This document shows, piece after piece, positions 1,837-27,552 of a stretch of 64,000 nt of DNA. Positions within the stretch are counted from its first letter, which is position 1. Each line of letters begins with the position of its first letter. The notes beneath the pieces are model-generated. The model did not search any database. It worked only from the letters and a program-made list of their open reading frames with translations, and was not told the DNA's origin. A program made the position numbers and the translations under genes. This DNA comes from Candidatus Aminicenantes bacterium (lineage in GTDB: Bacteria > Acidobacteriota > Aminicenantia > Aminicenantales > UBA4085), in NCBI GenBank assembly GCA_963783665.1, contig CAWANZ010000007.1, positions 28,793-92,792 on the forward strand, read 5' to 3'.

Positions 1837-4800
1837 ATGTTGAAACATGATGCCCTAAAACGCGCGTCGGAATTGATCGCGGCCGGCCTGATCATCGTCT
1901 TGGCGGTTGTCATTGCCCCGGCCTTTGGCCAGACCGAGCTTCCCAAGCCGACCTACGCCAATTCGCTCGTCATCAGTATCGAGCACCGCCCGACCGACGG
2001 GACGGAGGTTGATTATATCAAAGCCAATTTCCCCTTCGGCCTTTACGCCTGGCCGTCGCTGAGCGTCACCCATGTCGCTCCCTCCCTGGCCTGGGTTTCC
2101 GATTGGTCCGATGCGGACGCGGGGATTTCGGCCTTCAAGACAACGGTCAACAGCTATATCGCCGCGGCCAAAGCCAAGGGCGTCAAATTTCACCTGGTCG
2201 TCTGTTCCGGCCTTGCCCGGAGCCTCGGAGTTTATACCGCGGCTAAAACCGAGGATGTCCGGAACACCCAATGGTTCAACGACAACAACATGGGCACGCC
2301 CGGCCAGGTCGTCTCGTCCGAAGCGATGAGCAAATATATTTTCGGGACGTTTTCCCGCTATGCCCGGAAAATGCGGGCCAACCTCGAAGCCAAATCCCGG
2401 GCGACGTTCGAATACCTCAAGGAAAAGATGGACGAGAATCCGGAGACGTTTGTCGCCGTCAGCGGCTGGGGCGAAGCAGAGATGAGCTTCCGGCGGATGG
2501 ATGAATCGACCGGTCCCCAGGCCTGGTTTTGCGATTATTCGCCGTTTGCCGTCTTGGAATTCCGGGACTGGATCACCCACCAGGGCCTGTACGATGACGC
2601 GACGGGAATTTACGCCGGCCAGGGATGGTCGGGCGGCGGAGCCAAATACCAGGGAGCGGCCGGATTGGCCCAATTCAACGCCGATTTCGGCCAAGCTTTT
2701 ACGACCTGGGACCTTCGCTACTTCAACTGGACGCTGGCCGACGATTGGGATTCGGTTCCCGCGGACGGAATCAACAACGACCCGGGCCGAATCGCCCTGG
2801 CCGATTACGTTCAGGGCGGAATGATGCCGTCGTCGGGGACGCATTATATTGCCGGCGGCTTCGACCCTCCCCGGACGATGACCCTCGGCAACGCGTTCTA
2901 TGACCTGTGGCACCTCTTTCGGGAGACCTTGGTTCACCACCTGGCCCAGGACGCGGCCGGTTGGGCGGTCGATGAGGGCATTCCCTCGGACCGGTGGTAC
3001 TCCCATCAAATCGCGGCCGATTACATGTTCGGAACAAAGCCGGATGATCCGGTCCTCAACCCCAGGTATTACAGCTCGGCCTCGCCGCTCTGGGTGGCGG
3101 GAGTCGCTCCCGTCGCTTCGGTCGGGGCCTCCATTTACGACATCAAGTTCCCGACGATGGTTCGCCCGGACGACGCTTCATGTTTTTCCGGCGATTTCCG
3201 CCATGTCGGCCAACTGGGGGATCCTGGAATTCGACCCGGAAACATACCCGATCGGCCTGGGCGTGGAGCAGAGCTCGTCGGCGGTCATCCTGGCCCAGTA
3301 CCTCCGGGCCTATTCGTATCGACCGCACCTCATCAACTTCTGGCGTTGGACCGATACATCCGGGGAGCACCGGATCAAGGGGATGAACAAGGAAATCGCC
3401 CTGCGCGATTTCATCAGCCAAGTCCGGGATAAAGCCCGTTCGACCAACCTGTCGGTCGTTTATGCGCCCGCCCAAGGTCGTCGAGCTCTCCGGGTCCTAT
3501 GGCGCGTCCGGCGCCCGACTCGAAATCACCGGGAAAATCTGGAGCGGGGAAAAATGGAATTGGACGGACTGGGGTAATTTCCACCATTTCGTAGTCTATC
3601 GGAGCGCGACGGCCGTTTTTACGGCCGACGACGCCCATGCGATCGGGACGACGACGACGTTTGTCTACGACGACGGCACGGCCGCCTTACGGCGGAACCT
3701 ATTATTACAAGTGGCGGGCGGTCAACTCCGCCAACGTCAAGGGCCCGGCTTCCGACGCCGTGATGGTCTCGGCCGTTGCCCCCGACATGCCCGTCCTGTC
3801 GCTGAGCCGGACGTCGCTTTCTTCGGCTTCTCCCAGGGCGGGACGCCCACGCCGGCCCAGTCCGTTCTCGTTTCGAACGTTGGGGCCGCGGGAACGACGC
3901 TCGCCTGGACGGCCGTCTCCAACCAGCCTTGGCTCCAGGTCCAGCCCGGATCCGGGACAGGCAACGGCGTTCTTCAGATCAGCGTCCTTGGGGCGGGCCT
4001 TGCGCCCGGGACGTATTCGGGGACGATCACGGTCAACGATCCCTTGGCCGCCGACGCGCCGCAAACGGTCAGCGTCCGGTTTGACGTTTTCGCCCAGGGA
4101 GAGGATGAAGCGCCGTTCGGGTCGTTCGACACGCCTCTTCACGAGTCCAATGTTTCCTCCAGCATCCCCGTGTCAGGCTGGGCTCTGGACGATATCGGTC
4201 TCGCTTCGGTCTCGATCAAGCGGTATCCCGTCGATTCCGATCCGGCTGGGTCGGCTGGTTCCGACGGACTGGTCTTTCTCGGGGCGGCGACGTTCGTCCG
4301 CGGGGCCCGGCCCGACGTGGAAGGGGCCTATCCGGATTACCCGCAGGCCGATAAAGCCGGCTGGGGGTACATGCTGTTGACGAATTTCCTCCCCAACCAA
4401 GGCAACGGGACGTTCACCCTCGTGGCCGTGGCCGAGGACACGACCGGTCATGCGGTCCGGCTCGGGGAGAAAACGATTTACGTGGATAATGCCAACGCGG
4501 TCCTGCCTTTCGGGGCGATCGATACGCCGACCCAGGGCGGGACGGCTTCGGGCGCCCTCTTCTACAATTTCGGCTGGGCCCTCACTCCGCCGCCGGCTTC
4601 GATCCCCATCGACGGTTCGACCATCTGGGTTTTTGTGGACGGCGTTCCCCTGGGGCACCCGTCCTATAACCACTATCGCGCGGACATCGCCACGCTGTTC
4701 CCGGGATACGCCAATTCGCTCGGGGCCGTCGGCGTTTATAATCTCGATACCACGACCCTTTCGAACGCGACCCACACGATCGTCTGGAGCGTGACGGATT

Positions 4801-5231
4801 CCGCCGGCCGGGCGGACGGCATCGGCTCGCGCTACTTCGACGTGGTCAACGTCGGCGGATCCGCGGCCGCTTCAGGCGCGCCGGCGGAAGCACGGCTTCC
4901 CGAAATTCCCAGCGGCCGGCTCGGGCTCGAAGCGCGGGGCGGCCGGACGGTCTTCGAGATCGAGGAGCTGGGACGGATCAAAATCGAATTCGCCGTCCCT
5001 CCGGGGACGCGGATTGTCGGCTGGGGAGAGCTCCCGGACAAGCCGCTGCCCGTCGGCTCGACGCTGGACGGGGAGGGGCGCTTCTGGTGGATGCCGGGGC
5101 CTGGGTTCCTCGGCCGGCACATCCTGCATTTCGCCGCAACCGACGGCGCCGGGCGAGGCCCGATTGTGGACGTCGTGGTCGACATTGTGCCTAAACGCGG
5201 CCGGAATGAAGGATCGGGGTCCGAGGGCTAA
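1837..5231 (+). CDS. Secreted GH-like protein + FN3 + BACON-like domain + shared C-terminal double-Ig/He_PIG-like module. Frame-shift interrupted.
   Basis: ATG 1837 is followed by a TM/signal segment (AAGLIIVLAVVIAPAFGQ). The gene is spread over ORFs 1837..3432, 2900..3577 and 3462..5231, with junctions near 3170 and 3470. The FN3 motif YYYKWRAVNSANVKGPAS lies in a fourth frame (ORF 3637..4380), so a compensated shift pair sits at about 3690 and 3820. The C-terminal module is LAWTAVSNQPWLQVQPGSGTGNG...PGTYSGTITV, then APFGSFDTP...VSGWALDDIG, LPFGAIDTPTQGG, and PGPGFLGRH. Confidence 0.65.
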
Positions 5232-5339
5232 TCCCCCCTGGACGGGCGAATATCCCCCTCATTATTCCCCCCTGCGGGGGATGTTGTCATTTCTTTTTAA
5301 CGCTGTATATTATCGGCGAAGTTTTTTGCGAGGAGTCTC

Positions 5340-8300
5340 ATGAGTTTTTCCCGCATTGGCCGCCCGATTTTCTCCCTGTTCTCAAGCGCCCTCTTTTTCG
5401 TCATATCGTCGGCGGCTTTTGGCCAGATCACGGTCACGGCCCCGGCGGCCAAAGTCGTTGTCCGGGCCGCGCCCGATTACGCGACCGAGGTCCTGGCCGA
5501 CCGCTGGGACATGAATCAGCGGACCGACCTGGGTTGGCGGATCTTCAACACCGTCGAGCTTCCCGCTTCCAACCTGGCCGACATATCTTTTACGGGGGGC
5601 GTCTTCTCGGCCCGGTCCACGCCGGTCTATGACCCGAACTTTCCGGAGATATATTCCGACCCGAACATCGCCATCCTCGATTCCGATTATCCGAGCTCGG
5701 CCGGAATCGGCAAGTTCGGCTCGAATTATAAAATCAATGCCGACAAGTACCGCGTCTTCGCCATCCGGATGTATCTCGAGGGCCCTTACGATCCCAACCT
5801 GAGATTCGGACAGCTGAAGTGGTCGGAAAACACGATTTACGGAGGGGTGTCTCACGCCAACGCGTTTGTCGTCTCTCCGGGATGGCGGATCTACCTGGTC
5901 GACATCCCGACGCTCGGCCTCCTGAACGGAACCGCCTGGGCCGGGCTCAAGGATTCGCTCTTCTTCGATCCCATGTCCCAGAGAGACCGGGAGATCAAGA
6001 TCGACTGGATCCGGCTTGTCGAGAACGGAACGACGTACCGAAAGACGATCACCTGGACGGGCTCGGGCAACGTGGACATCTACCTCGACAACGACAGGGA
6101 TTCAAGCAACGGGAACCTCGGCATCCTGGCCTTGAATGTCTCCGGAAGCGTCCTACGAATTCATCGCCGGGGGGCTGGCGGCCGGGAATTATTATGTCGC
6201 CATCGCCCCGACCGGGTCGACGACGTATGCCTATTCGGCCGGCTATTACGCGGTCGACGAACAGCCGATCTTCCGGATCGACACGCCCTCGGCCGAAGGA
6301 AGCAACCAGGACTTCATGACCATCGTCGCCGGCAATCCCTGGGATTTTAACGCGCTCTCGGATGTCGACCACACGGTCAACTTGACGACCAAATCCATCC
6401 AGACGATCAACTACGAGGACTTGGCCGGGAACATCTTCAACGGCAACCAGGTCTTTTACGGCGAAGCGGCGATTCCCTCCGGCCTGATCGGCGACCCGAC
6501 GGTCTTTTTCCTGAATTACTTTTTCCGCGGGGCGACCTACAAGATCGACACGTCCCGGTATCATAACCTGGTCGCCAAAATGGGGATCGCCGGCGTCCAC
6601 AGCACCAACGACGGCTCCGTCGCCCGGGTCATGTACATGCGGACCGACGAGCATGCGATCGGGGAGAACGTCACCCAGGACATCATCATCCGCCATACCC
6701 CGCTGCCCGACGGCCGTTGGGTCATGAACAAGATCGTGGCCGACCTGCGGACCGTGCCCCTCGAGGACGGCGGAGGCAGCCCCTCCCACAGCGGCTGGAC
6801 CGGGACCGTCGACACATTCCGGATCGATCCGCATGAATTTCCCGACGGGCGGGCGTTCTTCTATGACGACGTCAAGATCACCGCCGACTGGCGGGTCGAC
6901 TCGTCGTTCGTCGATCGACTGGACGATGGAGGACGGGGACACGCCGACCGGGCGCGACGGTGTCTTTCTACTATGACACCGACCGGAGCGGGTATAACGG
7001 GACGCTCATCCAATCGGGGATCTCCGCCCCTGCCGGGAGCGGGAGCACCGTCTGGAACACGCCGAGCGTCCCGGGCGGGACGTACTATCTTTACGCCGTC
7101 GTCACCGACGGCTATAACACGAATCGGTTCTACGCCACCGGCCCGGTGATCGTCAACCACTCCGGCATCCCGACGCTCGCGCTTTCGAGACAGGCCTTCG
7201 TCTTCGGCGCGATCCAGAACGGGACCGCCACCCCGGCCGAAAAGACGACCCTGACCAACACGGGCACGGGGACGTTGAACTGGACGGCGACGCGCTCGGC
7301 CGACTGGATCTCGGTTTCCCCGACGAGCGGGACGGGAAACGGCATCATCAATATCGGAATCGCCCGGACGGACTTGAGCCCGGGGACCTATTCCGGAACG
7401 GTGACGGTCTCCGACCCGAACGCCTCCAACACTCCCCAGGTCATCACCGTGGCCTATACGATCTATGGCGACGGCGCGGATAGCCCGCCGTTCGGGGCGT
7501 TCGAGACCCCGGTCGACGGGGCGATGGTCGCCTCTTCAATCGCGGTGACGGGCTGGGTTCTGGACGATATCGGGATGCAATCGGTCAAAATCTACCGGGG
7601 GACGGGACTTTCCGACCGGATTTATATCGGGGACGCGGTCTTTGTGGAAGGGGCGCGTCCGGACGTGGCTTCCGCCTATCCCAACTATCCCCAAAACTGC
7701 AAGGCGGGCTGGGGATATATGCTGCTGACCAACTTCCTGCCTAACGGAGGAAACGGAGGCTTCAGTCTCCTGGCCTATGCCGTCGACCTGACCGGTCATG
7801 AAGTCCTTCTCGGGACCATGGCCATTACCTGCGACAACGCCGCCGCGGTGTTGCCGTTCGGGGCGATCGACACGCCCACCCAGGGCGGGACGGCCGCGGG
7901 GACGGGCTTTTTCAATTTCGGCTGGGCCTTGACCCCGATGCCCGCCTCGATTCCGACCAACGGATCGACGATCACAGTCTGGGTGGACGGGGCGCCCCTG
8001 GGGCATCCGTCGTATAACAATTACCGGGGGGACATCGCCACGCTGTTCCCCGGATACGCCAATTCCAACGGGGCGATCGGCGTCTACAGCCTTAACACAA
8101 CGACATACGCGGAAGGTTGCCATACCATCGTCTGGTCGGTGACGGATTCGGCCGGTCATTCCGACGGGATCGGGAGCCGGTACTTCATGATCCAGAATCT
8201 GGCCGCTCCGGGTGCAGCGGCGGCTTCAACGCAGCCGATGCGGCCGGCCGAGGAAACCTTAGGGATGCGGGAAGACGCCCGGATGCCGGTCTTCGCCAAG

Positions 8301-8672
8301 AAGGGGATGGACGTGAACAGGCGGGTGGAAATGGTCCTCCCGGAGGCCGACGGAGCGATCCGGATCACGATTCCCGAAGTCACCCGGGTGGCCGTTTATC
8401 TGAGCGAAGCCGAGGCGGGCGAAGACGAGGAGCGGATGACCGTCCGCGGGACGCGGATGTTGAGCAAGGTCGCCCGCGACGATGCGCGCTACGAGGCCTA
8501 TGAGATTGTCCTCGGCGAACTCAAGCCGCTTCCGATCGGCGCGTCCTTTGACCCCGTCGACGGCGTGCTTTACTGGCAGCCCGGTCCGGGATTTTTAGGA
8601 GAGTATACGTTCGTCATCGTTGATACGGAAACAAGGACGAAGCGGACGATCAAGGTGACGATTACGCCCTGA
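5340..8672 (+). CDS. Large secreted protein of unknown N-terminal family carrying the shared BACON-like/double-Ig/He_PIG-like C-terminal module. Two frame shifts.
   Basis: Signal peptide MSFSRIGRPIFSLFSSALFFVISSAAFGQ. ORFs 5340..6350, 6136..7149 and 6960..8672 join colinearly, with shifts near 6140 and 6940. Two internal ITW..G..V.IYLD.D/YYDTD...G.YY.YA repeats are present. The C-terminal 504 aa are homologous to the ends of 1837..5231, 8684..11800 and 19933..27552. Confidence 0.65.
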
Positions 8673-8683
8673 AAGCGAGGGCC

Positions 8684-11600
8684 GTGTTGAAATCGATAGT
8701 CCGGGCCGGTCGACGAATTTTCGTCTCAATCGGCCTGATGCTGATTCTCGCCGGCGCCGCTCAGGCGGCCTATTTAATCAACGTCCCCCAGGAGCTCCGC
8801 CAGCCCAACGGCGATCTTCTCAAATGCCTGGCCAGCGGAGACGAATTTTACAACTGGCTTCACGACGCGGCCGGATACACGATCGTCCAGAATCCGAAGA
8901 CCGGCTGGTATGTCTATGCCGAACCCGACCCGGACGGTGACCTCAGAGCCTCGGCCCACGTCGCCGGCCGGTCGGATCCGAGAAGGCCGGTCTGGCGAAG
9001 GGGCTGCGGCTCGCCCCGCAAAAGATCCGCGAACTTCGCAACGGCATCCTTCGGCTCCCGGCCGGAGAGGTTGCAGCCCCAGGCCCCCCGGTCCGGCGCC
9101 TTCAACAACCTGGCCGTTTTTATCCGCTTCTCCGGTGAAAACGAATTCACCGATGCGCCTTCGGTTTTTACCAATATGCTGAACGCCTCGGGCCCGTCGG
9201 ACAATTCGATGTACGGCTATTTCCGGGAGGCCTCGTATTCGACCCTGTCCATTTCGACATCCATCTATCCCACGCCGTCAACGACGGTCATCTCCTTATC
9301 AGGACGTCCAACCGCGCGGATACTACCAACCGTACAATGAAGCGACGAATACGATCGGCTACCAGGGAGGGAACAACGGAACCGAGCGAAGGGATCGGGA
9401 GCACATCCTGATCAAGAACGCCGTCGCCGCCATCGCCTCCCAGGTTCCGGCGGGTCTCGTGATCGACGGCGACGGGGACGGAAGAGTGGACAATCTCACG
9501 TTTGTCGTTTACGGCTCGCCGACGGGCTGGAGTTCCCTCCTCTGGCCTCATCAATGGTCTTTGTATTCCCAAACGGCCTATATCAACGGCAAGCGTGTTT
9601 ATACGTACAGCCTCCATCTCCAAAGCATGTTCAATGTGGGCGTCCTCTGCCATGAGATGTTCCACTGCCTCGGCTCGCCGGACTTGTATCACTATACGAG
9701 CAACGGCATCCAGCCGGTCGGCGGCTGGGACGTCATGGAAAACAACCGCAATCCGCCCCAGCACATGGGCGCCTATATGAAATGGCGGTATGGGACCTGG
9801 ATCGCCTCCATCCCGGAGATCACGACCTCGGGGACCTATACGCTTAATCCCCTGACGTCGTCCTCGGGAAATTGCTACAAGATCCGGTCGCCCAATTCCG
9901 CGACGGAATACTTCATCGTGGAATACCGGCGAAGAACGGGAATCTTCGAATCGTCCCTTCCCGGGGAAGGATTGCTGGTCTATCGCATCAACACGGCCGA
10001 AGTCGGGAACGCCGACGGCCCGCCCGACGAGGTCTACCTTTACCGGCCGGACGGAACGCTCTCGGCGAACGGGACCGTCAACAATGCGGCCTTCAGCAGC
10101 GGCGCCGGGCGCACGGCCATCAACGACGCGACGAATCCGTCTTCATTCTTGACGTCCGGGGGAGCCGGCGGCCTCAATATCTCCGCAGTCGGAGCCGTCG
10201 GCTCGACCATTTCTTTCACGGTCACGCTTCCGGCCGATTCGCCGACGATCTCCCTTTCCGATAAAAGCTTCGTTTTCGGCGCGATCCAGAACGGCCCGGC
10301 GACTCCGGGTGGGACGTCGATCCTGAAGAATTCGGGGGAGGGGACGCTCGCCTGGACGGCGACGCGCTCGGCCGATTGGATCTCGGTTTCCCCGACGAGC
10401 GGAACGGGGGATGCCCTGCTTTCGATCGGCATCGCCCGGACGAACCTGAGCCCCGGAAGCTATTCGGGCACGGTCGCGGTCGCCGCTCCGGGCGCGACCA
10501 ACACGCCGCAGACGATCTCCATCACTTACAACGTCTACGCCTCCGGCGGAGACGCCGCTCCGTTCGGGACGTTCGAAACGCCGCTCGAGGGATCGACGGT
10601 TGTTTCGAGCATCCCGGTGACGGGCTGGGCCCTGGACGATATCGGGATGTCCTCGGTGAAGATCTACCGGGGGACGGATTTCTCCGACCGGGTGTATATC
10701 GGGGACGCGGTATTTGTGGAAGGAGCCCGGCAGGACGTGGCCCTCGCGTATTCCGGTTATCCCCAAAATACGCGAGCCGGCTGGGGTTACATGCTCCTGA
10801 CCAACTTCCTTCCCAACGGAGGAAATGGGAGCTTTACCCTTTTAGCCTTTGCCACAGACCTGACCGGACATGAAGTTCTGCTCGGACAGCAAGACGATCA
10901 TCTGCGACAACGTCCACGCGATATTGCCGTTTGGGGCGATCGATACGCCGACGCAGGGAGGAACGGTTTCGGGAACGGGATTCTTCAACTTCGGCTGGGC
11001 CCTGACGCCGCAGCCGAATTCGATTCCGACGAATGGATCGACCATCAATGTCTGGGTGAACGGAGCGGCCCTGGGGCATCCGTCGTATAACAATTACCGT
11101 GGGGATATCGCAACGCTTTTCCCGGGATACGCCAACTCCAACGGTGCGGTGGGTGTATACACGCTCAACACGACCGGATACGCCGACGGCGTCCATACGA
11201 TCGCCTGGTCGGTGACTGATTCCGGCGGCAACACCGATGGGATCGGGAGCCGGTATTTTTCGATCTTGAACTCGGGGGGGGCGAGTCCGGCGGCGTCGTC
11301 GTCGATTGAGGGCTTGGCCGGCGACGGCAAGACCGGCTCCCAAGGACGGTCTTTCCCCAGAATCCGCTCAGTAGAGGAAATCGTCGCCATTCCCGAAGAC
11401 ACCCGAAGCCCGATGTTTATACGACGCGGGATGGCCGGTGACGCACCCGTCGAAATGGTTCTGCCCGAGACAGACGGCTCGCTTCGGATCGCGATTCCCG
11501 AGGTCACCCGGGTGGCGATTTACCTGAACGAAAAGGACGCCGTCGAGACGGAATCAGAGATAATCGCCCGCGGAGCGCGGATGCTGAGCAAGGCCAGCGT

Positions 11601-11800
11601 CGACCGATTCGCGCTACGAAGCCTACGAGCTGGCTCTCGGCGTGCTCAAACCGCTTCCGATCGGGGCATCCTTCGACCCCGTCGACGGCGTGCTTTACTG
11701 GCAGCCTGGCCCGGGATTCTTAGGCGAGTACCAGTTCATCGTGATTGACCGGGAGACGGGAACAAAGCGAAATATTTCGGTGACGATAAAGTCCAGATAA
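8684..11800 (+). CDS. M6-family (immune inhibitor A-like) zinc metalloprotease fused to the shared C-terminal module. Frame-shift interrupted.
   Basis: Signal peptide, then the N-terminal pattern PNGDLLKCLASGDEFYNWLHDAAGYTIV typical of M6-domain proteins. HExxH zinc site VLCHEMFHCLGSPDLYHY lies in ORF 9459..11090. Pieces are 8684..9340, 9459..11090 and 10870..11748, with shifts near 8990, 9300, 10880 and 11594. The true end is YEAYELALGVLKPLPIGASFDPVDGVLYWQPGPGFLGEYQFIVIDRETGTKRNISVTIKSR-TAA, with the stop at 11798..11800. Confidence 0.7.
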
Positions 11801-14599: not shown

Positions 14600-14677
14600 A
14601 TCAAACCGAATCATGACAGTAACGCGTATACTCGCCTTACAATGGCGCCGTAACATGAGGGGCAGGAGGGGCTCCGC

Positions 14678-17497: not shown

Positions 17498-19932
17498 ATG
17501 AAACATCATAACGGACGGCTCTTTTTACGTCTGGCCTTGGTCCCTATTCTGTCGATGCTATTTATGGGAGTTGTCTCGATATCCGCGCCCGACACGGTCG
17601 CCGGCGGAGGGCAATCTCTTTCAAAGAAGAGTCCGGCCCCGGGCGCGCTCACGGTCGAACCGAATTACGGCAAAATGCCGCTTTATTTTATCCCCAATCG
17701 GGGCCAGATGGATGAGCGGGTGGACTATTATCTTCAGGGCAAAGACAAGGCCGTTTACTTTACGTCGGAGGGCCTGACGTTTGTTCTGAATGAAAAAAGC
17801 GCGAAAAGCGAAAGCACCGTTGGACCGCGGCGCTCCGCCGTGAAACTGGATTTTGTGGGCGCGACTGCGGACGTTCGGCCCTCGGGAGAGGAGAAGACCG
17901 GCGCAATCGTTTCGTACTTCAAGGGGAAACCGGAGGAATGGAAGGCCGGGCTCCCGACCTACTCGCGGATCGTCTACAAGAATCTCTGGCCGGGGATCGA
18001 CCTCGCCTATTACGGCACGGTGGACAAGATGAAGTATGAATTTATCGTCGCTCCCGGCGCGGATCCTTCATTGGTCCGGTTGGCCTATCGCGGAGCCGAC
18101 GACGTGGCCTTGAATAGCGAAGGCCGGTTGGTGGTTAAAACGCCGGCGGGGGGCTTCGAGGATGATCGCCCGGTCGGGTATCAGGAAACGAATGGGAAGC
18201 GGTTGGAGGTCGGGCTTCGTTACGCGCTTGAAGTGCAAGCAACGGACGAGCCCGGCTTCAACCCTGGGAAAGACGCGGTTAAATCTTATGTCTACGGATT
18301 CGAAGTCGGGGAGTATGACCGGACAAAGCCGCTCGTTCTTGATCCGGCGGTCCTTGTTTATTGCGGCTATATCGGCGGGAGCGGGTATGATCATGGATAC
18401 GGAATAGCGGTCGACGGTTCGGGATGCGCTTATGTCACGGGGCAGACGGCTCCGCGGGGACTTTCCGGTCGCTCGTCGGTCCCGACCTAACGTATAACGC
18501 CAATTATGATGCTTTCGTGGCCAAAGTGAACGCCGCCGGAACGGCCCTTGTTTACTGCGGCTATATCGGCGGCTCGGAGGGAGACACGCCAATGATATCG
18601 CGGTTGACGGCTCCGGAAACGCGTATGTTATCGGTTCGACGATCTCCACCGAAAGCATGGGCTTCCCGGTCCTCGTCGGCCCCGACCTGACGTATAATGG
18701 CGGACGTCGATATTTTTGTAGCCAAGGTCAACGCCGCCGGTACAGCCCTCGATTATTGCGGCTACATCGGCGGCTCAGGTGACGAGGGGGGGATATATCC
18801 TAACCTCGGCGATACAGGCGGCATCGGGGTCGACAGCTCGGGAAACGCCTATGTCACATGATACGATTCGCGACCAACAGCGCCGCCACGTTTCCGGTCT
18901 CGGGCGGACCGGACTTGACCTGGAATGGCGGCAGTTACGATGGCTTCGTCGCCAAGGTCAATGCCGGCGGCACGGCCCTCGATTATTGCGGCTTTATCGG
19001 CGGGACGGGAGATGATGTTGCCCAATGACATCGCGGTCGACCACGAAGGCGGCGCTTATATGACGGGGACGACCAACTCCGCCCCGAGCGTGACTCCGGG
19101 AGATAACAAATTTCCGGTTTTGTCCGGCCCGTCCTTGACCTACAGCGGCGGCTATTAGGATGCCTTTGTGGCCAAGATAAGCCACACGGACGGAATCTTC
19201 GAATACTGCGGCTACATCGGAGGGTCGAAAAGCGATGACGGCGATAGTATCGCCGTCGATGGCGCCGGGCGCGCCTATGTCCTGGGACATACCTCCTCGA
19301 CCGAAACTACGTTTCCGGTCTTGGTCGGGCCGGACTTAACCTTCAATGGCGATTCCGCATGATTTTTCGTTCGATACCTTCGTGGCCAAGGTAAGCTCCT
19401 CCGGCTCGGGGCTCGATTATTGCGGTTATATCGGCGGCTCGATGAGACAGATATATCCCAAGGGAATTGCGGTTGACGGCTTGTATAACGCCTATGTCAC
19501 GGGCTACACCAGTTCCACCGAAGCGACCTTTCCGGTCATCGGCGGGCCTGACCTGACTTATAACGGCGGCTTAGATGATGCCTTTGTGGCAAAGGTAAAC
19601 GACTCCGGCTCGGCCCTCGTTTACTGCGGTTATATCGGCGGTTCAAGCTCTGACTACGGCTATGATATTGCCGTCGATGCCTCGGGAAATGCATATATCG
19701 TCGGAGACACCAGTTCCGGGCCGGATACTTTTCCGGTCATCGTCGGGCCCAGCCTGACCCTAATGGCGGCGAAACGCTTTCGTGGCCAAAATCTATTATG
19801 CCGACACGCTGGCCACGCTTGCAGTTACATCGCCCAACGGCGGGGAAAGCTGGGTCCAAGGTTCGATTCACGACATCACCTGGACGACAACGGGGACGGT
19901 AGCCAACGTCAAGCTCGAATATTCGACGAATA
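17498..19932 (+). CDS. N-terminal part of a giant surface protein: signal peptide, DUF7948-like region and SBBP beta-propeller repeats. Downstream of 18480 it carries multiple frame shifts and one in-frame TAG.
   Basis: ORF 17498..18490 is intact (MKHHNGRLFLRLALVPILS..., YGKMPLYFIPNRGQ). The repeating unit L.YCGYIGGS..D.G.GIAVD..GNAYVTG.T.S..FPV..GPDLTYNGG.DAFVAKV then hops between frames (pieces 18424..18690, 18925..19158, 19168..19362, 19346..19933, 19782..). There is a TAG at 19156..19158 within GGY-stop-DAFVAK. Confidence 0.65.
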
Positions 19933-22900
19933 ATGGGATCAAACTGGACGACGATCATCGCCTCGACGCCCAATACGAATTCTTTTTCCTGGACCTTGCC
20001 GATCGTCGTTTCGGCGAATGGCCTGGTCCGGGTAAGCGATGCCGCCGTATCGGCGATCAACGACGCGAGCGACACGGTGTTTGCGATCGTCCTCGCCGCG
20101 GTTTCCGGGACCGACCGGGCGGCCTTGATCGATCTGTATAACGCGACAAACGGGGATTCCTGGACGAACAATACGGGGTGGAAGACGGCCCCTCTTCATA
20201 CCGACGGATTTGCCCTGCCGGGTACCGAAAACACCTGGTTTGGCGTTACCACCGACGGTACGAATACGAACGTCCTGAACGTGTCTTTACCCGGCAATAA
20301 CCTGGTCGGCACTCTACCGGCCAGCTTGGGGAATCTGACGAACCTGCAAGAGCTCATTCTTTATTCCAACCAGCTCTCGGGGAGCATTCCGGCCAGTTTT
20401 GGCAGCCTGAGCAACTTGGTCACCCTCAACCTCTCCGGGAACCAGCTCTCGGGGAGTGTCCCGGCGGAATTGGGAAATTTGAACAATCTGCAATATTGCG
20501 TGCTTTTTAATAACCCGCTTTCGGGGAGCATTCCGCCGGAGCTGGGCAATTTGAGTCAGTTGAAGGAGCTCTGGATCTATCATAACCAGCTGACCGGAGC
20601 CATCCCGACGCAGCTCGGGAACCTGGGCAACCTGCTTAAGCTCGGCCTTTATGATAGTCAGCTCTCGGGGACCATTCCATCCAGCCTCGGCAATCTTAGC
20701 AATTTGCAAGAACTCTGGCTCTATAAAAACCAGCTGACCGGAAGCATCCCGGCGCAGCTCGGGAACCTGGGCAACCTGCTTAAGCTCGGCCTTTATGAAA
20801 ATCAGCTGACGGGAGCCATTCCGCCCGAACTGGGCAATCTGACCAATTTGACGGAGCTTTGGGCCTTTACCAATCTGCTCTCGGGGACCATTCCGGCGCA
20901 GCTGGCCAACCTCGTCAGTGTGATCAAACTCGATTTCTACGGCAACCAGCTGACGGGAAGCCTTCCGCCGGGGCTCGCGACTCTCGGCAATGTGCAACAC
21001 TTCGATTTCGGCTTGAATCAGCTCTCGGGAAGCATTCCGGCGGAATATGGAAATTTCAACAATGTCATTTATCTCGGCCTCGATCAAAACCAGCTGACCG
21101 GGGGCATACCGGCGGAGCTCGCCAGCCTCGGAACGCTCCAGCAGCTTCGTCTCGGCTCCAATCAGCTCTCCGGAAGCATTCCGGCGGAACTCGGCAGCCT
21201 AACAAATCTGACTTATCTCGGCCTTTATACAAACCAGTTGACGGGGACGATTCCCCCCGAGCTTGCCAATCTCACCCAACTGTATTATCTCGGCCTCCAA
21301 GCCAACCAGTTGACGGGTGGAATACCGATGGAGCTCGGAAACTTGGCTAATTTGGAATATCTCGTCCTCCGCTCCAATCAGCTGACCGGCGGCATTCCGA
21401 TGGAATTGGGGAATCTGAGCAAGCTGAAATGGCTCATTCTCCACTCCAATCAGCTCTCCGGGGAAATCCCGCCACAGATCGGCAACTTGACGAATTTGAC
21501 CGACCTTGATCTCCATTCCAACAAGCTGTCGGGAAGCATTCCGACTTCGCTGACCGGCCTTACGAGTTTGACCTCGACGACGACGAATATCGGCTACAAC
21601 GCCTTTTATTCCGCGGACGCCGGATTGACGGCATTTCTGGACGCCAAGGACGCCGACTGGGCGGTGACGCAAACGATCGCCCCAACAGGAGTATCGGCGG
21701 CCCCTGGTGACGCTTCGGCCGAGGTCACCTGGACTCCGATTCCGTATACCGGCGATACCGGCGGCTATCGGGTCTTTTACGCGACGACGGCCGGCGGGCC
21801 GTATACGTTCTACGCCCAGACCGCGGACAAAGCCGCGACTTCGCAAGTGGTAAGCGGCCTGACCAACGGGACGCCTTATTATTTCGTCGTCCAAACCCGG
21901 ACGGACGTCCATGCGGGAAACCTCAACGCTGTTGACAGCGGGAACAGTGACGAAGCCACGGCCACGCCGACACTCGTTACCACGGGGACGCTGACCCTGA
22001 CGGCGCCCAACGGCGGCGAAAATTGGCTTCTGGGATCCACCCACGGCATCCTCTGGACCTCGACGGGGACGGTGGGCAACGTCAAAATCGAATACTCGAC
22101 GGATAATGGCGCGAGCTGGAGGACGATCGTCTCTTCCAGGGCCAATACCGGAGGGTATTCCTGGACGTCGGGGAGCCCGACGGACCCCACGCTCAATACC
22201 TTGTCGACGACCTGCCTGGTCCGAATCAGCGGAGTGGCCGGAGAGGCGGTCCCGGACACAAGCGACGGGAACTTTGCGATTTCCGCGTCGGCGGCGATCA
22301 CCGGAACCATCACCGATCTTGCGGGAACACCCCTCCCTAATGCGTATGCGCAAGCTTTTGACTTGAATAACGTCCGCATCGTCACCCGTTTGGCGAACGC
22401 CTCGGGGGAATATTGGATGGCCGGGCTCCCGGCGGGGAGCTATAAGCTCGTCTTTTTCGCCGACTCTACGCAGAACAATCTTTATGAATGGTATGACGAC
22501 CAAAGGACGTTCAATGCGGCCGCGCCTATCGCCGTCACCTTGAACAACACGACGGCGAATATCAACGCGCAGCTGGCGGCCGGGGGGATCATCAGCGGCC
22601 GGGTGACGGATGAAACCGGGGCGCCCTTGGCCGAGGTCGTTATCGCGGCCTGGACGGAGGATGGCCTTTCCGGATATTGGGTTGCCGAATCGGACGGCAA
22701 TGGGGATTATCAGGTCAAGGGGCTGCCGGCGGGGAATATAAAGCTGATGTTCGAGCTTACGGGATATCCGGCGAAGTTTAACGGAAACGGCTATAGCTTC
22801 GAGCAATCCACGCCCGTTTCCGTCACTCTCGGCGCCGAAACATCGGGGATCAATATGGTCCTTGAAAAAGGCGGTCACATCAGCGGGACGATCATCGACG

Positions 22901-25900
22901 GAGCGGGGAATCCCGTTTCCGGCATTCGGGTGCTTACGTACGACGCGACCAGCCATGACTATTTAAGGCCCCCGGGAAACGTCGCCTTCACGGCGGCCGA
23001 CGGGACGTATTCCATCCAGGTGAGAGCGGGCCAGACTCATGTTCTCTTTGATGCCAGCGCGAAACCCGAGAGCGGGCTGCGTTCGCAGTTTTACAGCAAC
23101 CAGACGACGTTTGCGGCCGCGGGGTCGGTGGATGTGATCAAAGAAGGGACGACGCCGAACATCAACGCGACGCTGGCGGCCGGCGGGGGGACGCTTACGG
23201 TCCAGGTGACAAACGGCCTTGGGCAGGGCGTGGTCGCGTCTGTTTATCTGTATAACACCGAGACCGGCACCGAGACGCGAATGAGGCCGGGAGCGGCAAC
23301 CGACGCCAATGGGTATCTTGAGATCAAGGGGCTCATCCCCGGAAATTATAAAGTGAAAGTTTATGACTCCAACGATCAGTTGGGCCGATACCACACGGAG
23401 TGGTACGACAACGCCTTGACCTACGCCGGGGCGGCCCCGGTCAACGTCACGGAAGGGGGAACCACGGCGATCGCGGTGGTCATGGGCGAGACGGCCCCTG
23501 TCGCCCCGGAGATCAACCTGAAGCAGGGGGCGACGGATATCGCCACGGGCGGAACGTATGACTTCGGGTCGAAGACGGTCGGGACGGATACCGACACGGT
23601 CTTTACGATCGAAAACCTCGGGACGGACTCCCTGATATTGAGCGGACTGCCGCTTTCGATCACGGGAACGAATGCGGACCAGTTTGCGATCACCGTGCAG
23701 CCGACTTCGCCGGTGGCGAACGGCGGGACGAAGACCTTCACGGTCGGTTTCCATCCGACATCGCCGGGGGCCAAGACGGCCCAAATGTCGATTGCCAACA
23801 ATGACGGCAACGAGAATCCCTATGTCCTCAACCTGACGGGAACGGGCGGAGACGCCGCGGGGACGCTGACGGTCACATCCCCCAACGGCGGGGAGAGCTG
23901 GATCCTGGGCTCGACCCATAACGTCACCTGGACTTCGACGGGGACGGTGGGCAACGTTAAGATCGAGTATTCAACGGATAACGGCGCGAGTTGGATGACG
24001 ATCGTCGCCTCGACGCCAAACGACGGCGCGATTTCCTGGACCTCGGGCAGCCTGACCGACCCGGCGCTTAACACCGTGTCGACGACCTGCCTGGTGAAAA
24101 TCAGCGGAGTGGCCGGAGAGGCGCTTCCGGATCAAAGCGATGCGGTGTTCACGATCGCGGCCTCGGGGTTCATCCATGGAACGGTCACCGATTCTCTGGG
24201 GGCGCCGATTCCGGATGTACGGGTCTGCGCTTATGACCTGAATAATGTCTACATCTCGCGGGGGTGGACGAATGCGGCCGGGGAGTACGGGATCGGCGGG
24301 ATGGTTGCGGGGAGCTACAAGATCCTGTTCGATCCGACGGCGACGACGGGCAACTACCTTATCGAATGGTATAACAACCAGCCGAGCTTCAATGCCGGAG
24401 GTTCGGTGGCAGTGACGCTGAACAACGTAATCGAAGGGATCAACGCGCAGCTGAACCCCGGAGGGATGGTGAGCGGGCGCGTGATGGCGGAAGGCGGGGC
24501 GCCGTTGGAGGGAGTCGCCGTCACGGCCTGGATGGAGAATGGATTCTACGGTTTGTGGTATGCCGAGACGGACGCCAACGGAGACTACCGGGTCCAGGGG
24601 CTGCCGGCGGGGAATGTCCGGTTGATGTATTCTCTATCGGGGTATCCTCAGAAGTTTTACGGCAACGTCTATACGCTGGAAACGGGGACGAACGTCCCGG
24701 TAACGATCGGGACCGAAACGACGGGGATCAATATGGTCCTGGAAAAAGGCGGGACCATCAGCGGAACGGTGACCGACGGAGGAGGGAATCCAGTCTCCGG
24801 AATCAGGATCATCCCCTACGACGCAGCCAGCCATGATTATCTGAGGCCGACGGGAACGGTGTTGACGGGGGCGAATGGGACATACTCGGTGCTGGTGCGG
24901 GCGGGCCAGACCAAGGTGTTGTTCGACGCGAGCCCCAACCCCGGGAGCGGACTGCGGTCGCAGTATTACAACAACCAGACGACGTTTGCGGCGGCGGGGT
25001 CGGTGAACGTCGTCAAGGACGGGACGACGCCGAACATCAACGCGGTTCTGGCCGCCGGCGGCGGGACCATTACTGTCCAAGTGACGAACAGTCTCGGACA
25101 GGGGGTGCCGGCTGCGGTCTACCTCTATGATCCGGTCACGGAGACCCGGGTGACGATAGGCACTGCGACCGACGCGGGCGGATACGTGGAGTTCAAGGGG
25201 CTCATTCCCGGCAACTACAAGGTTAAAATTTATGACTCCAATGGGGAATGGGGGCGGTACTATGATGAATGGTACAACAACGCCTTGACTCATGCGATGG
25301 CTTCGCAGGTGAACGTGACGGAGGGAGGAACCACGGCCCTCTCGGTAGTTTTGAGCGAATCGGCGCCTGTTGCGCCGGAGATCAACCTGAAGCAGGGGAC
25401 GACGGATATCGCTACGGGCGGAACGCACGGATTTGGGTCGAGGATCGTCGGGACGGATACCGATGCGGTCTTCACGATCGAAAACCTCGGGACGGATTCC
25501 CTGACGCTGAGCGGACTGCCGCTTTCGATCACCGGAACGAACGCGGATCAGTTTGCGATCGCCGTCCAGCCGACCTCGCCGGTCGCGGCCGCGGGGACGA
25601 AGACGTTTACGGTCCGGTTCCATCCGACCTCGGTCGGGGCCAAAGCGGCCCAGATCTCGATCGCCAACAACGACAGCAACGAAAATCCCTATGTCCTCAA
25701 CCTGACTGGGACGGGCGCCGACGCCGCGGCGACGCTGACCGTGACGTCGCCCAACGGCGGCCAGAGCTGGATCGAAGGGACGGTCCACAATATCACCTGG
25801 ACGACGACCGGGACGGTGGCCAACGTCAAGCTTCAGTATTCGACGAACAACGGCGGCAACTGGACGACGATCGTCTCCTCGACGGCCAACACGGGAACCT

Positions 25901-27552
25901 ATGCCTGGATCGTGCCGAGCACCCTCTCGGTCAACTGTCTGGTCCTGATCAGCGGGGCCCCGTCGGGGATCCCGACGGACGCCAGCAACGCGGTCTTTGC
26001 GATCATCGCCGGCACGCCGACACTCGCCCTGTCGAAAACCGCGTTCAACTTCGGGTCGGAGCAGTATGGGACGCCGACGGCGGCCGAAACCTGCGTTGTG
26101 TCCAATAGCGGGACGGGAGTCATCAATTGGACGGCCACGCCATCGGCGGCTTGGCTCGGCGTGACGCCGGTCAGCGGGACCGGGGCGGGGACGCTGACGA
26201 TAAGTATCCTCGACACGAGTCTGTCTCCGGGCAATTACGCGGGAACGATCACGGTCGCCGATCCCGGGGCGATCAACTCGCCTCTGGCCATCACGGTGAA
26301 TTACCAGGTCTACGATAACGGGGCCGACGCCCCGCCGTTTGGGGCGTTTGAAACGCCGGCCGACGGAGCGACGGTCGCTTCCTCGATTCCGGTGACCGGT
26401 TGGGTCCTGGACGACATCGGGATGGTCGGCGTGAAGATCTACCGGGGGACGGACGCGTCCGACCGGGAATTCGTCGGAGACGCCATCCTGGTGAGAGGGG
26501 CCCGGAAGGATGTGGAGGCGGCCTATCCCGGCTATCCCCAGAACGAGGTCGCGGGATGGGGCTACATGCTCTTGACCAACTTCCTGCCCAACGGCGGCAA
26601 CGGGACATTCACGCTGCTGGCCTACGCCACGGACACGGGCGGCCACGAGGTTCTTCTCGGGTCCAAGACGATCACCTGCGATAATGAAAACGCCGTGTTG
26701 CCGTTTGGGGCGATCGACACCCCGACGCAAGGCGGAACGGCCTCGGGGAGCGCGTTCATGAACTTCGGCTGGGCTTTGACGCCCCGGCCCAACTCGATTC
26801 CGTTGGATGGTTCGACACTCCTGGTCTGGGTGGACGGTTCGCCGCTTTCCCATCCCTCCTACAACCATTACCGGGGAGATATTGCGACGCTGTTCCCCGG
26901 ATACGTGAACTCCAACGGAGCGGTCGGGCTGTACTTCCTGAATACGACGGCCTATACGGACGGAGTGCATACGATCGCCTGGAGCGTGCAAGATTCGGCG
27001 GGACATGTGGACGGGATCGGGAGTCGGTACTTCTCGATCCAGAATGCGGTCGGAGGGTCGAGCGCCGGAGCAACAGGGTTGCTGGTTTTGTTTGAATCGG
27101 CCGGAAAGATGTCCGAGACCGTGGCGGGGATGCGAGAAGACGGACGGAATCCGGTTTATGTGAAGCAGGGGATGGCCGCGGATGCGCGGGTCGAAATGGT
27201 TCTGCCCGATGCCGACGGCGCGATCCGGATCGCTATTCCTGAGGTCACCCGGGCGGCGATTTACCTGAAGGAAGCCGAAGCGGGAGAGACGCAGTCCGAA
27301 ATGATCGCCCGCGGGGCGCGGATGCTGAGCAAGGCAGCGTCGGCCGATTCCGTATCCGGTACCCATTATGAAGCCTACGAGCTGGCTCTCGGCGAGCTCA
27401 AGCCGCTCCCGATCGGGGCATCCTTCGATCCCGTCGACGGCGTGCTTTACTGGCAGCCTGGCCCGGGATTCTTGGGCGAGTATACCTTCGTTATCATCGA
27501 CCGGGAGACGGGAACAAAGCGAAATATTTCGGTAACGATCAAGTCCAGATAA
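19933..27552 (+). CDS. Giant surface/adhesin-like protein (2539-aa intact ORF): Ig-like GGESW domains, 18 LRRs, FN3, CarboxypepD_reg-like repeats, choice-of-anchor-D/HYDIN-like domains, then the shared BACON-like/double-Ig/He_PIG-like C-terminal module
   Basis: This is the longest ORF in the window. Its first residues (MGSNWTTIIASTPNTNSFSWTLP) are the middle of a domain that starts in ORF 19782.. (LAVTSPNGGESWVQGSIHDITWTTTGTVANVKLEYSTNNG). The real gene therefore very probably begins at 17498. Confidence 0.85.
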   Translation: MGSNWTTIIASTPNTNSFSWTLPIVVSANGLVRVSDAAVSAINDASDTVFAIVLAAVSGTDRAALIDLYNATNGDSWTNNTGWKTAPLHTDGFALPGTENTWFGVTTDGTNTNVLNVSLPGNNLVGTLPASLGNLTNLQELILYSNQLSGSIPASFGSLSNLVTLNLSGNQLSGSVPAELGNLNNLQYCVLFNNPLSGSIPPELGNLSQLKELWIYHNQLTGAIPTQLGNLGNLLKLGLYDSQLSGTIPSSLGNLSNLQELWLYKNQLTGSIPAQLGNLGNLLKLGLYENQLTGAIPPELGNLTNLTELWAFTNLLSGTIPAQLANLVSVIKLDFYGNQLTGSLPPGLATLGNVQHFDFGLNQLSGSIPAEYGNFNNVIYLGLDQNQLTGGIPAELASLGTLQQLRLGSNQLSGSIPAELGSLTNLTYLGLYTNQLTGTIPPELANLTQLYYLGLQANQLTGGIPMELGNLANLEYLVLRSNQLTGGIPMELGNLSKLKWLILHSNQLSGEIPPQIGNLTNLTDLDLHSNKLSGSIPTSLTGLTSLTSTTTNIGYNAFYSADAGLTAFLDAKDADWAVTQTIAPTGVSAAPGDASAEVTWTPIPYTGDTGGYRVFYATTAGGPYTFYAQTADKAATSQVVSGLTNGTPYYFVVQTRTDVHAGNLNAVDSGNSDEATATPTLVTTGTLTLTAPNGGENWLLGSTHGILWTSTGTVGNVKIEYSTDNGASWRTIVSSRANTGGYSWTSGSPTDPTLNTLSTTCLVRISGVAGEAVPDTSDGNFAISASAAITGTITDLAGTPLPNAYAQAFDLNNVRIVTRLANASGEYWMAGLPAGSYKLVFFADSTQNNLYEWYDDQRTFNAAAPIAVTLNNTTANINAQLAAGGIISGRVTDETGAPLAEVVIAAWTEDGLSGYWVAESDGNGDYQVKGLPAGNIKLMFELTGYPAKFNGNGYSFEQSTPVSVTLGAETSGINMVLEKGGHISGTIIDGAGNPVSGIRVLTYDATSHDYLRPPGNVAFTAADGTYSIQVRAGQTHVLFDASAKPESGLRSQFYSNQTTFAAAGSVDVIKEGTTPNINATLAAGGGTLTVQVTNGLGQGVVASVYLYNTETGTETRMRPGAATDANGYLEIKGLIPGNYKVKVYDSNDQLGRYHTEWYDNALTYAGAAPVNVTEGGTTAIAVVMGETAPVAPEINLKQGATDIATGGTYDFGSKTVGTDTDTVFTIENLGTDSLILSGLPLSITGTNADQFAITVQPTSPVANGGTKTFTVGFHPTSPGAKTAQMSIANNDGNENPYVLNLTGTGGDAAGTLTVTSPNGGESWILGSTHNVTWTSTGTVGNVKIEYSTDNGASWMTIVASTPNDGAISWTSGSLTDPALNTVSTTCLVKISGVAGEALPDQSDAVFTIAASGFIHGTVTDSLGAPIPDVRVCAYDLNNVYISRGWTNAAGEYGIGGMVAGSYKILFDPTATTGNYLIEWYNNQPSFNAGGSVAVTLNNVIEGINAQLNPGGMVSGRVMAEGGAPLEGVAVTAWMENGFYGLWYAETDANGDYRVQGLPAGNVRLMYSLSGYPQKFYGNVYTLETGTNVPVTIGTETTGINMVLEKGGTISGTVTDGGGNPVSGIRIIPYDAASHDYLRPTGTVLTGANGTYSVLVRAGQTKVLFDASPNPGSGLRSQYYNNQTTFAAAGSVNVVKDGTTPNINAVLAAGGGTITVQVTNSLGQGVPAAVYLYDPVTETRVTIGTATDAGGYVEFKGLIPGNYKVKIYDSNGEWGRYYDEWYNNALTHAMASQVNVTEGGTTALSVVLSESAPVAPEINLKQGTTDIATGGTHGFGSRIVGTDTDAVFTIENLGTDSLTLSGLPLSITGTNADQFAIAVQPTSPVAAAGTKTFTVRFHPTSVGAKAAQISIANNDSNENPYVLNLTGTGADAAATLTVTSPNGGQSWIEGTVHNITWTTTGTVANVKLQYSTNNGGNWTTIVSSTANTGTYAWIVPSTLSVNCLVLISGAPSGIPTDASNAVFAIIAGTPTLALSKTAFNFGSEQYGTPTAAETCVVSNSGTGVINWTATPSAAWLGVTPVSGTGAGTLTISILDTSLSPGNYAGTITVADPGAINSPLAITVNYQVYDNGADAPPFGAFETPADGATVASSIPVTGWVLDDIGMVGVKIYRGTDASDREFVGDAILVRGARKDVEAAYPGYPQNEVAGWGYMLLTNFLPNGGNGTFTLLAYATDTGGHEVLLGSKTITCDNENAVLPFGAIDTPTQGGTASGSAFMNFGWALTPRPNSIPLDGSTLLVWVDGSPLSHPSYNHYRGDIATLFPGYVNSNGAVGLYFLNTTAYTDGVHTIAWSVQDSAGHVDGIGSRYFSIQNAVGGSSAGATGLLVLFESAGKMSETVAGMREDGRNPVYVKQGMAADARVEMVLPDADGAIRIAIPEVTRAAIYLKEAEAGETQSEMIARGARMLSKAASADSVSGTHYEAYELALGELKPLPIGASFDPVDGVLYWQPGPGFLGEYTFVIIDRETGTKRNISVTIKSR
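20270..21575 (+). repeat. 18 tandem 72-nt (24-aa) leucine-rich repeats of the plant-specific type, inside the giant CDS
   Basis: Consensus L.NL..L.LY.NQL(S/T)G.IP.ELGN, counted 18 times in the translation. Some adjacent units are near-identical at the nucleotide level, for example CAGCTCGGGAACCTGGGCAACCTGCTTAAGCTCGGCCTTTATGA at about 20607 and 20751. Confidence 0.85.
21988..25731 (+). repeat. Intragenic tandem duplication of two ~1.87 kb units (about 625 aa each) inside the giant CDS
   Basis: Unit 1 (21988..23862) and unit 2 (23863..25731) both read TLT.T.PNGGE.W.LGSTH...WTSTGTVGNVKIEYSTDNGASW, then CarboxypepD_reg-like repeats, then APEINLKQG.TDIATGGT..FGS..VGTDTD.VFTIENLGTDSL.LSGLPLSITGTNADQFAI. 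A third partial unit starts at 25732. Confidence 0.85.

Follow-up and report, generated by a model that had tools for sequence, protein, structure and literature searches.

A four-domain C-terminal module on unrelated exported proteins of Candidatus Aminicenantes

Four neighbouring genes for exported proteins in a Candidatus Aminicenantes genome end in the same module of about 500 amino acids, which may act as a stalk for displaying or retaining proteins at the cell surface. The genes lie in a 64,000-nucleotide stretch of DNA (assembly GCA_963783665.1, contig CAWANZ010000007.1, positions 28,793 to 92,792 of the forward strand), referred to here as the window. The module consists of a BACON_2 domain, two homologous Big_7-like immunoglobulin (Ig)-like domains (IgA and IgB), a disordered linker and a terminal beta-sandwich resembling He_PIG and dystroglycan-cadherin domains. 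Its fixed architecture, C-terminal position, copy number, diverse cargo and association with signal-peptide-like starts are typical of a shared module for sorting, retention or display. Our preferred explanation, to which we assign a probability of roughly 0.45, is a C-terminal, non-covalent surface display or retention stalk specific to one lineage, the class Aminicenantia of the Acidobacteriota. Members of the Aminicenantes are anaerobes that have not been cultured and that abound in sediments, aquifers and bioreactors.

Copies and domain composition of the module

The window contains four divergent copies of the module on unrelated heads. Using the intact copy 2 as the reference query (window 7161-8669, 503 amino acids), tblastn identified exactly four module loci of about 480-515 amino acids each, and hidden Markov models (HMMs) of the single domains, derived from homologues, placed BACON, IgA, IgB and the terminal domain in identical order in all four (Table 1). 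Both searches agree with the positions proposed in an earlier sequence-only reading of this DNA. Copy 4 shares 68.6% amino acid identity with copy 2 (tblastn match 26008-27540) and copy 3 shares 63-75% (10242-11788), the latter match running over three reading frames with two internal frameshifts. Copy 1 represents a divergent subtype with 50% identity (3822-5144) and a shortened N-terminal half of the terminal domain. At the DNA level the copies are 57-74% identical and are therefore old paralogues, not the result of a fresh duplication. The heads preceding them were taken to be unrelated, and tblastx comparison of the four indeed returned no high-scoring segment pair at 1e-5. The head of gene 3 matches TIGR03296 (1.5e-31) and Peptidase_M6, as expected for the M6 metalloprotease it had been called. 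Gene 4 carries, in order, a signal peptide, DUF7948, SBBP repeats, leucine-rich repeats (LRR), fn3, CarboxypepD_reg repeats, DUF1573/HYDIN-like Ig domains and the module, upholding its description as an SBBP/LRR/CarboxypepD_reg giant with a start now corrected to 17498. Family searches gave no matches for the beta-rich head of gene 2. The head of gene 1, described earlier as a glycoside hydrolase-like TIM barrel, has no support for that assignment from any Pfam, NCBIfam or PDB match. The signal peptides of all four proteins are not of the lipoprotein type.

A tandem paralogue of the gene 1 head lies at the start of the window. The region 1-1800 is about 71% identical to that head at the amino acid level (tblastx), and the paralogue terminates in ...RVRAVNSKGVAGPLSVPFKAQ and a stop codon directly past its FN3-like end, at the point where gene 1 continues into BACON. 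No module is found there by tblastn, which bears out the earlier statement that this gene stops after FN3. The paralogue at 1-1704 and gene 1 (compared over 1837-3800) represent a natural pair with the same head, without and with the module, and could be experimentally useful.

All four parts of the module fall, clearly or marginally, into known Ig-like families, and its novelty lies in the composite and in its deployment rather than in the fold. Of the BACON/BACON_2 families (PF13004/PF19190), BACON_2 scores 39.9-40.1 bits on copy 2 against a cut-off of 25 and reaches significance in 34 of the 36 homologues. A PDB profile search matches this first domain to the BACON-containing entries 4ZMH and 3ZMR, and sequence and profile searches of the PDB detect the BACON part only. 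Big_7 (PF17957) reaches 18.8-20.7 bits on the window copies, below its cut-off of 24.1; 31 of the 36 family members match it, the best at E 1.4e-24 (29 of 36 match Big_13). Homology between IgA and IgB is supported by hhalign (94.6%, E 7e-8). On the module end, He_PIG (PF05345) stays below threshold (21.5 bits against 24), with 10 of 32 members matching at E<1. AlphaFold2 modeling of the whole module from a 36-sequence alignment yielded four beta-sandwiches with a mean pLDDT of 82.6; residues 348-360 fall below a pLDDT of 50 and are disordered. When modeled alone, the terminal 139 residues form a beta-sandwich with a variable helical insert (pLDDT 90.5, pTM 0.84), for which the best Foldseek matches in the PDB are the cadherin-like domains of dystroglycan, a weak match (E 8.5e-4, TM about 0.4), followed by Rib, titin and CEACAM Ig domains. 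Foldseek with the whole module against PDB and viral structures returned generic Ig chains only (titin, cadherins, HYDIN-like and phage tail or Ig proteins) and was functionally uninformative. The C-terminal half of the terminal domain carries the motif LPIGSxLDxxxGxFxWxPGPGFxGxY, and modules end in a beta-strand (…RKxIxVxIxPK[FY]) with no hydrophobic helix. These results substantiate a BACON-like Ig unit, two tandem units of about 120 amino acids and a He_PIG/cadherin-like end, as first described for this DNA, the last of them sub-threshold by sequence and dystroglycan-cadherin-like by fold.

The composite module is not covered by existing models. NCBIfam has no model for any of its parts, the sole hit being a sub-threshold match of choice_anch_D to the BACON region (18.9 bits against 45). 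No entry in Pfam, NCBIfam or the PDB spans the composite, the terminal domain has no Pfam or NCBIfam entry of its own, and in Pfam, NCBIfam, PDB and Foldseek searches the module maps to no known anchor or sorting family. Our literature search found no paper on the composite module. Proteins carrying it are currently annotated as 'BACON domain-containing', 'Ig-like domain-containing' or hypothetical.

Distribution, cargo and conservation

The module is widespread, mostly within one lineage, and has a fixed position. The possibility that it is confined to one locus, raised when it was first noticed, is contradicted by more than 2,453 database proteins that match it at E<=1e-3. Those with names derive almost exclusively from 'Candidatus Aminicenantes' or Acidobacteriota metagenome-assembled genomes (MAGs), and the labels Eubacteriales, Clostridia and Deferrimicrobium found on some MAGs among the hits are probably unreliable. 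About 105 of the 120 best hits span 96-100% of the module and end a few residues before the protein C-terminus. In species-representative genomes 455 module stretches were confirmed, the best 80 of them distributed over about 17 MAGs, with as many as 19 loci lying in a single MAG. We fetched 1.2 Mb of related loci containing 95 intact module open reading frames (ORFs). All 95 follow the order BACON (1-6 copies), IgA, IgB, terminal domain, the BACON copy number being the sole variable in domain order and number across the family, and in 92 of them the module ends at most 14 amino acids from the stop codon. One MAG encodes at least 23 intact copies and another 14. The highest BACON number occurs in a MAG labelled Deltaproteobacteria UBA8936, where six BACON domains precede IgA, IgB and the terminal domain (L012 411-7187) in a protein whose head contains Peptidase_C39_2, Golvesin_C and LGFP.

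To define the range of the terminal domain, we searched its profile against 1.84 billion representative proteins, which gave 5,912 hits at E<=1e-3, of which 2,920 reach E<=1e-10. The hits fall into two classes: full-length single matches at the protein C-terminus, representing the module family, and giant proteins in which 8-34 repeats match the He_PIG-like C-terminal half only. Short hits are gene fragments that begin inside IgB or the linker. A free-standing tag was considered and rejected, as no intact protein in the related loci or among the representatives carries the terminal domain without the Big_7 pair.

The proteins bearing the module are diverse and probably exported. The 82 heads examined represent 64 Pfam families, among them LRR (12), SBBP (9), Kre9_KNH (6), LVIVD (5) and DUF7948 (5). 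Other heads include peptidases (M28, S8, C1, M20 and C39-like), PhoD and purple acid phosphatase N-domains, Laminin_G_3 and beta-propellers. Such diversity is expected of a general sorting or anchoring tag and not of a substrate-specific carbohydrate-binding module (CBM). A simple heuristic detected a signal-peptide-like start in 76 of 83 5'-complete ORFs, in addition to the four window genes. Not every exported protein in this region uses the module: an 881-amino acid PD40/Laminin_G_3 exoprotein encoded at 14678-17323, amid the module genes, lacks it.

Conservation differs markedly between the parts of the module. Comparing paralogues with unrelated heads, identities within one genome exceed those between genomes for IgA-IgB (71% versus 65%), BACON (46% versus 41%) and, most clearly, the terminal domain (44.5% versus 37%). 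Invariant residues are concentrated in IgB, over its whole length, and in the C-terminal half of IgA (AGWGY, PFGAIDTP, NxGW, YNxYRxDI, FPGYxNS and DGIGSRYF). The strong conservation of the Big_7 pair indicates a role of the module beyond passive spacing, and on this basis it is predicted to bind something common, either an envelope component or a widespread ligand. Over the last ca. 230 nucleotides of genes 3 and 4 (11570-11800 and 27320-27552), corresponding to the He_PIG-like part of the terminal domain, DNA identity rises to 89-94%, compared with 57-78% in the rest of the module, and the similarity ceases at the stop codon. This shared 3' tract looks like the product of gene conversion between paralogues, confined to the terminal domain.

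The first three domains also occur in proteins with tails of the type IX secretion system (T9SS). In a minority of hits, from other unclassified bacteria, a signal peptide is followed by two tandem BACON-IgA-IgB cassettes and a type A T9SS tail (YPNPFNP…K..L[IL][RK]). This arrangement is seen in P0002, P0006, P0012, P0014, P0015, P0044, P0056, P0062 and P0064 and in L078 5794-8307; P0005 and P0009 possess two cassettes and no tail. As these proteins of other phyla consist of cassettes with a T9SS tail or with none, the cassette is a self-contained unit, either older than Aminicenantes or reaching beyond them. The T9SS-type cassettes retain the same invariant IgA-IgB residues, and a profile search started from them returned mostly Aminicenantes proteins again, without informative names. 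The T9SS tail (Por_Secre_tail) starts precisely where the Aminicenantes linker and terminal domain start, and this positional equivalence provides the best hint, on architectural grounds, that the last domain may occupy an 'anchor slot'. Known C-terminal signals are missing from the Aminicenantes proteins themselves, in line with the sequence-only reading. Pfam and NCBIfam searches of 36 modules gave no Por_Secre_tail hit (PF18962/TIGR04183), and a T9SS-tail HMM found nothing in the window or in the related loci with their ca. 95 module genes. A regular-expression scan of the loci detected no PEP-CTERM-like tails, and there was no NCBIfam hit for PEP-CTERM/exosortase or LPXTG/sortase signals. 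No T9SS machinery (SprA/Sov, PorV, PorU, GldKLMN) is encoded in the window or in the clustered neighbouring loci.

Gene models and genomic neighbourhood

Table 1. Features of the window (positions in nucleotides; domain limits of the module copies are HMM envelopes).
Feature	Position	Strand	Description
Tandem paralogue of gene 1 head, 3' part	1..1704	+	frameshifted; without module
Gene 1	1837..5231	+	signal peptide, head of no matched family, FN3-like unit, module; at least 4 frame segments
Module copy 1	3780..5231	+	divergent subtype; BACON 3780-4100, IgA 4101-4493, IgB 4494-4850, terminal domain 4911-5192
Gene 2	5340..8672	+	signal peptide, beta-rich head, module; 3 frame segments
Module copy 2	7161..8672	+	intact, reference; BACON_2 7161-7475, Big_7-like IgA 7476-7841, Big_7-like IgB 7842-8198, disordered linker 8199-8273, terminal He_PIG-like domain 8274-8669
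Gene 3	8684..11800	+	signal peptide, M6 metalloprotease head (HEMFH), module; 4 frame segments
Module copy 3	10233..11800	+	BACON 10233-10547, IgA 10548-10904, IgB 10915-11271, terminal domain 11398-11794
Histidine kinase and response regulator pair	11994-14599		between genes 3 and 4
Gene 4	17498..27552	+	giant of ~3,350 amino acids ending in module; true start 17498; intact from 19933
Module copy 4	26008..27552	+	BACON 26008-26322, IgA 26323-26688, IgB 26689-27045, terminal domain 27139-27546
Radical-SAM/SPASM gene	27730-29160		downstream of gene 4
Two conserved ORFs of no matched family	~28548-29825, ~29575-31152		after radical-SAM/SPASM gene (region 27730-31668)
Lipopolysaccharide/exopolysaccharide (LPS/EPS) biosynthesis region	30500-58700		Bac_transf sugar transferase, glycosyltransferases including one of GT1, Kdo/WaaP-family kinase, methyltransferases, dehydratases
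Two Wzy_C O-antigen-ligase-like proteins	36082-38283, 51692-52972		in LPS/EPS region
GDP-mannose-dehydratase-like epimerase			in LPS/EPS region
GATase/PRTase protein			in LPS/EPS region
S41 C-terminal peptidase	41125-42465		in LPS/EPS region

The module genes are interrupted by frameshifts. Genes 1-3 are each broken over 3-5 reading frames: gene 1 into ORFs at 1837-3432, 2900-3577 and 3462-5231 with a further frame change at ca. 3640-3830, gene 2 into ORFs at 5340-6350, 6136-7149 and 6960-8672, and gene 3 by frame changes near 9340-9459, 10885 and 11600. Gene 4 shows repeated frame changes within 18400-19950. About 15 frameshifts are present in positions 1-20000, affecting the module genes and the region of SBBP repeats (for example at ca. 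2900, 3440, 6300 and 6960), one of which, a single extra C at ca. 10885, throws 'GSKTIICDN' into another frame. By contrast, the region 19933-27552 and the two-component genes are intact. Two further genes appear truncated relative to Pfam profiles (Bac_transf, 33455-34621; epimerase, 47963-48949). Given a contig of about 1.1 Mb, the frameshifts in all four module genes probably represent residual indels of a long-read-type assembly; alternatively, they may reflect real pseudogenisation.

The genes surrounding the module genes show little that recurs. Clustering of 1,435 ORFs from 77 loci produced recurrent neighbour clusters that are antisense shadows, two-component systems or the result of synteny of orthologous loci. 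The two conserved ORFs after the radical-SAM/SPASM gene recur beside M6-peptidase module genes in four other Aminicenantes loci (L003, L023, L027 and L071), and the three genes may form a peptide-maturation cassette. The LPS/EPS genes imply that the organism is a diderm with LPS. This region adjoins the module genes here and is not recurrent in other loci; that a surface polysaccharide is the substrate to which the module attaches is speculation.

Possible roles of the module

Surface display or retention could be achieved as follows. The module would be common to a large regulon-like set of Sec-exported proteins, each carried over the inner membrane by its N-terminal signal peptide. The unrelated N-terminal cargo, such as a protease, a phosphatase or an LRR or beta-propeller binder, would be placed at the distal end of a rod built from three beta-sandwiches (BACON_2, Big_7, Big_7), followed by a flexible linker of 20-40 residues and the terminal He_PIG/dystroglycan-cadherin-like beta-sandwich. 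Through a common binding surface formed by the highly conserved Big_7 pair, the terminal domain or both, the module would retain its cargo non-covalently on a shared envelope component, possibly an outer-membrane protein, LPS/EPS or an S-layer. We infer the surface location, the existence and nature of a receptor and the identity of the docking domain.

Several known systems offer partial parallels. Dockerin and SLH domains are non-covalent C-terminal attachment modules on diverse enzymes, representing the cellulosome and S-layer paradigms. As in these systems, one conserved C-terminal module is found on many unrelated secreted heads per genome, which implies a common docking partner; in contrast, the module shares no fold with them, neither a cohesin-like nor any other partner was found, and the host is a diderm with LPS genes. 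Similar to the NCBIfam 'choice-of-anchor' domains, an extracellular cassette precedes tails that differ by lineage (a T9SS C-terminal domain (CTD), the Aminicenantes terminal domain or none), although the module belongs to no curated family and choice_anch_D itself is matched only below threshold. BACON, DUF1735 and SusE/F Ig-like domains have been proposed as membrane-proximal spacers in Bacteroidota (PMC11216935). The module shares with them a BACON_2 first domain and the proposed spacing of a functional domain from the outer membrane by Ig-like domains. However, those spacers are N-terminal and lipoprotein-anchored, whereas the module chain is C-terminal, lacks a lipid anchor, belongs to Acidobacteriota and carries cargo that is mostly not carbohydrate-active enzymes. 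The C-terminal half of the terminal domain resembles the He_PIG/dystroglycan-type domains of giant adhesins in its sub-threshold He_PIG score, its matches to tandem repeats and its fold. Unlike in those adhesins, the domain is single and strictly terminal and possesses a family-specific N-terminal half of about 65 residues, often with a helical acidic insert.

A number of observations weigh against a dedicated attachment function. No receptor, sortase-like enzyme or secretion component recurs beside module genes in the 77 loci, and the proteins contain neither a transmembrane signal nor one for lipid anchoring. As the terminal domain never occurs apart from the other three, it does not act as an independent tag. 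It has no sequence relationship to T9SS tails (hhalign probability 0.8%), no T9SS CTD appears among its top 50 Foldseek matches in the PDB, and it adopts a generic adhesin-type Ig fold, with a C-terminal half that corresponds to the He_PIG repeat common in giant adhesins. Conservation is highest in IgA-IgB and extends there to other phyla, which suits a widespread ligand better than a lineage-specific receptor. Of the display, anchoring or export stalk originally suggested for this DNA, the conserved C-terminal cassette with swappable heads and many copies is well founded; anchoring or export is a prediction for which the 77 loci yielded no recurrent partner gene.

In one alternative, a CBM-like, non-catalytic cassette would tether secreted enzymes and binders to an abundant polymer or particle in the environment instead of the producing cell, with the terminal Ig domain contributing avidity or oligomerisation. 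The many invariant aromatic and polar residues of IgA-IgB, kept across phyla, are consistent with such targeting, as are the T9SS proteins elsewhere that consist of two cassettes and nothing else, so that the cassette functions alone. BACON was originally proposed to be carbohydrate-binding (PMC11216935), and Foldseek matches include the Bacteroides surface glycan-binding protein SGBP-B. We nevertheless regard targeting as unlikely. The cargo forms no coherent enzyme class, being dominated by proteases, phosphatases, LRR proteins and propellers with few glycosidases, no CBM family matches by sequence or fold, and the BACON domain of BoGH5A is considered to serve in spacing rather than in binding (PMC11216935). 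A CBM would, moreover, require neither a strict C-terminal position nor within-genome homogenisation of the last domain. The comparison with T9SS leads to another possibility, namely that the module or its terminal domain is recognised by an undescribed Aminicenantia outer-membrane translocation and attachment pathway in the manner of a T9SS CTD, possibly with cleavage after transport. Like a T9SS CTD, the terminal domain is a C-terminal beta-sandwich past a linker, present on many unrelated signal-peptide-bearing cargoes per genome, and the Aminicenantes module set resembles T9SS cargo in its diversity, its Ig domains and its proteases, phosphatases, LRR and adhesin-like proteins. Cassette homologues bear a T9SS CTD at the equivalent position, each genome holds dozens of candidate substrates, and the 1.2 Mb of Aminicenantes loci contain no T9SS CTD or PEP-CTERM tail. 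Yet T9SS CTDs comprise 70-100 amino acids, whereas the conserved unit of the module has four domains and ca. 500 amino acids, its last domain is unrelated to T9SS CTDs in sequence or fold and never stands alone, the C-terminal half of that domain is a He_PIG repeat of the ordinary kind that giant adhesins carry in tandem, and no candidate translocon is linked to module genes. An export signal of this kind is consequently quite unlikely. A related reading, in which the four-domain tail, or the terminal domain together with the Big_7 pair, is the handle of an undescribed Aminicenantia export-attachment pathway, an analogue of the T9SS CTD built from adhesin Ig domains, appears doubtful.

The module could also be an inert Ig cassette that spread by duplication and shuffling within one lineage, without a common partner, serving as an extender or fold stabiliser like the stalk of a fibrillar adhesin. 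All of its domains come from generic bacterial Ig-like families (BACON_2, Big_7/Big_13, He_PIG), the whole-module Foldseek matches are to generic Ig chains and phage tail or Ig proteins, and the search for a partner gene was empty. Spacers tolerate change, however, and the last three domains are invariant in order and number in 95 ORFs, IgA-IgB is 65-71% identical between paralogues and the module is always at the extreme C-terminus, never internal. Such a passive role therefore seems rather improbable. A recent duplication within this locus, or a repeat that was collapsed or chimerised during assembly, would fit the wealth of frameshifts in the region and the near-identical 3' tract of genes 3 and 4. 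This scenario is hardly credible and can be ruled out by the divergence of the copies, identical by 57-74% at most in DNA and, for copy 1, by 50% in protein, and by thousands of homologues in independent assemblies.

The module has direct consequences for the study of Aminicenantes. It marks dozens of exported proteins per genome and provides a sequence-based list of the likely surface and secreted proteome, including heads without a known family. It can further be used as a handle, in pull-downs or phyletic profiling, for identifying an envelope component or a pathway by which it is recognised. A dedicated sorting pathway, if real, would be a new member of the short list of C-terminal protein-sorting systems, and as an export-attachment handle the tail would delimit which proteins of a widespread uncultured lineage are secreted or exposed at the surface, among them dozens of proteases, phosphatases and binders per genome. 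If no dedicated pathway exists, the module would still represent massive lineage-specific reuse of one Ig cassette.

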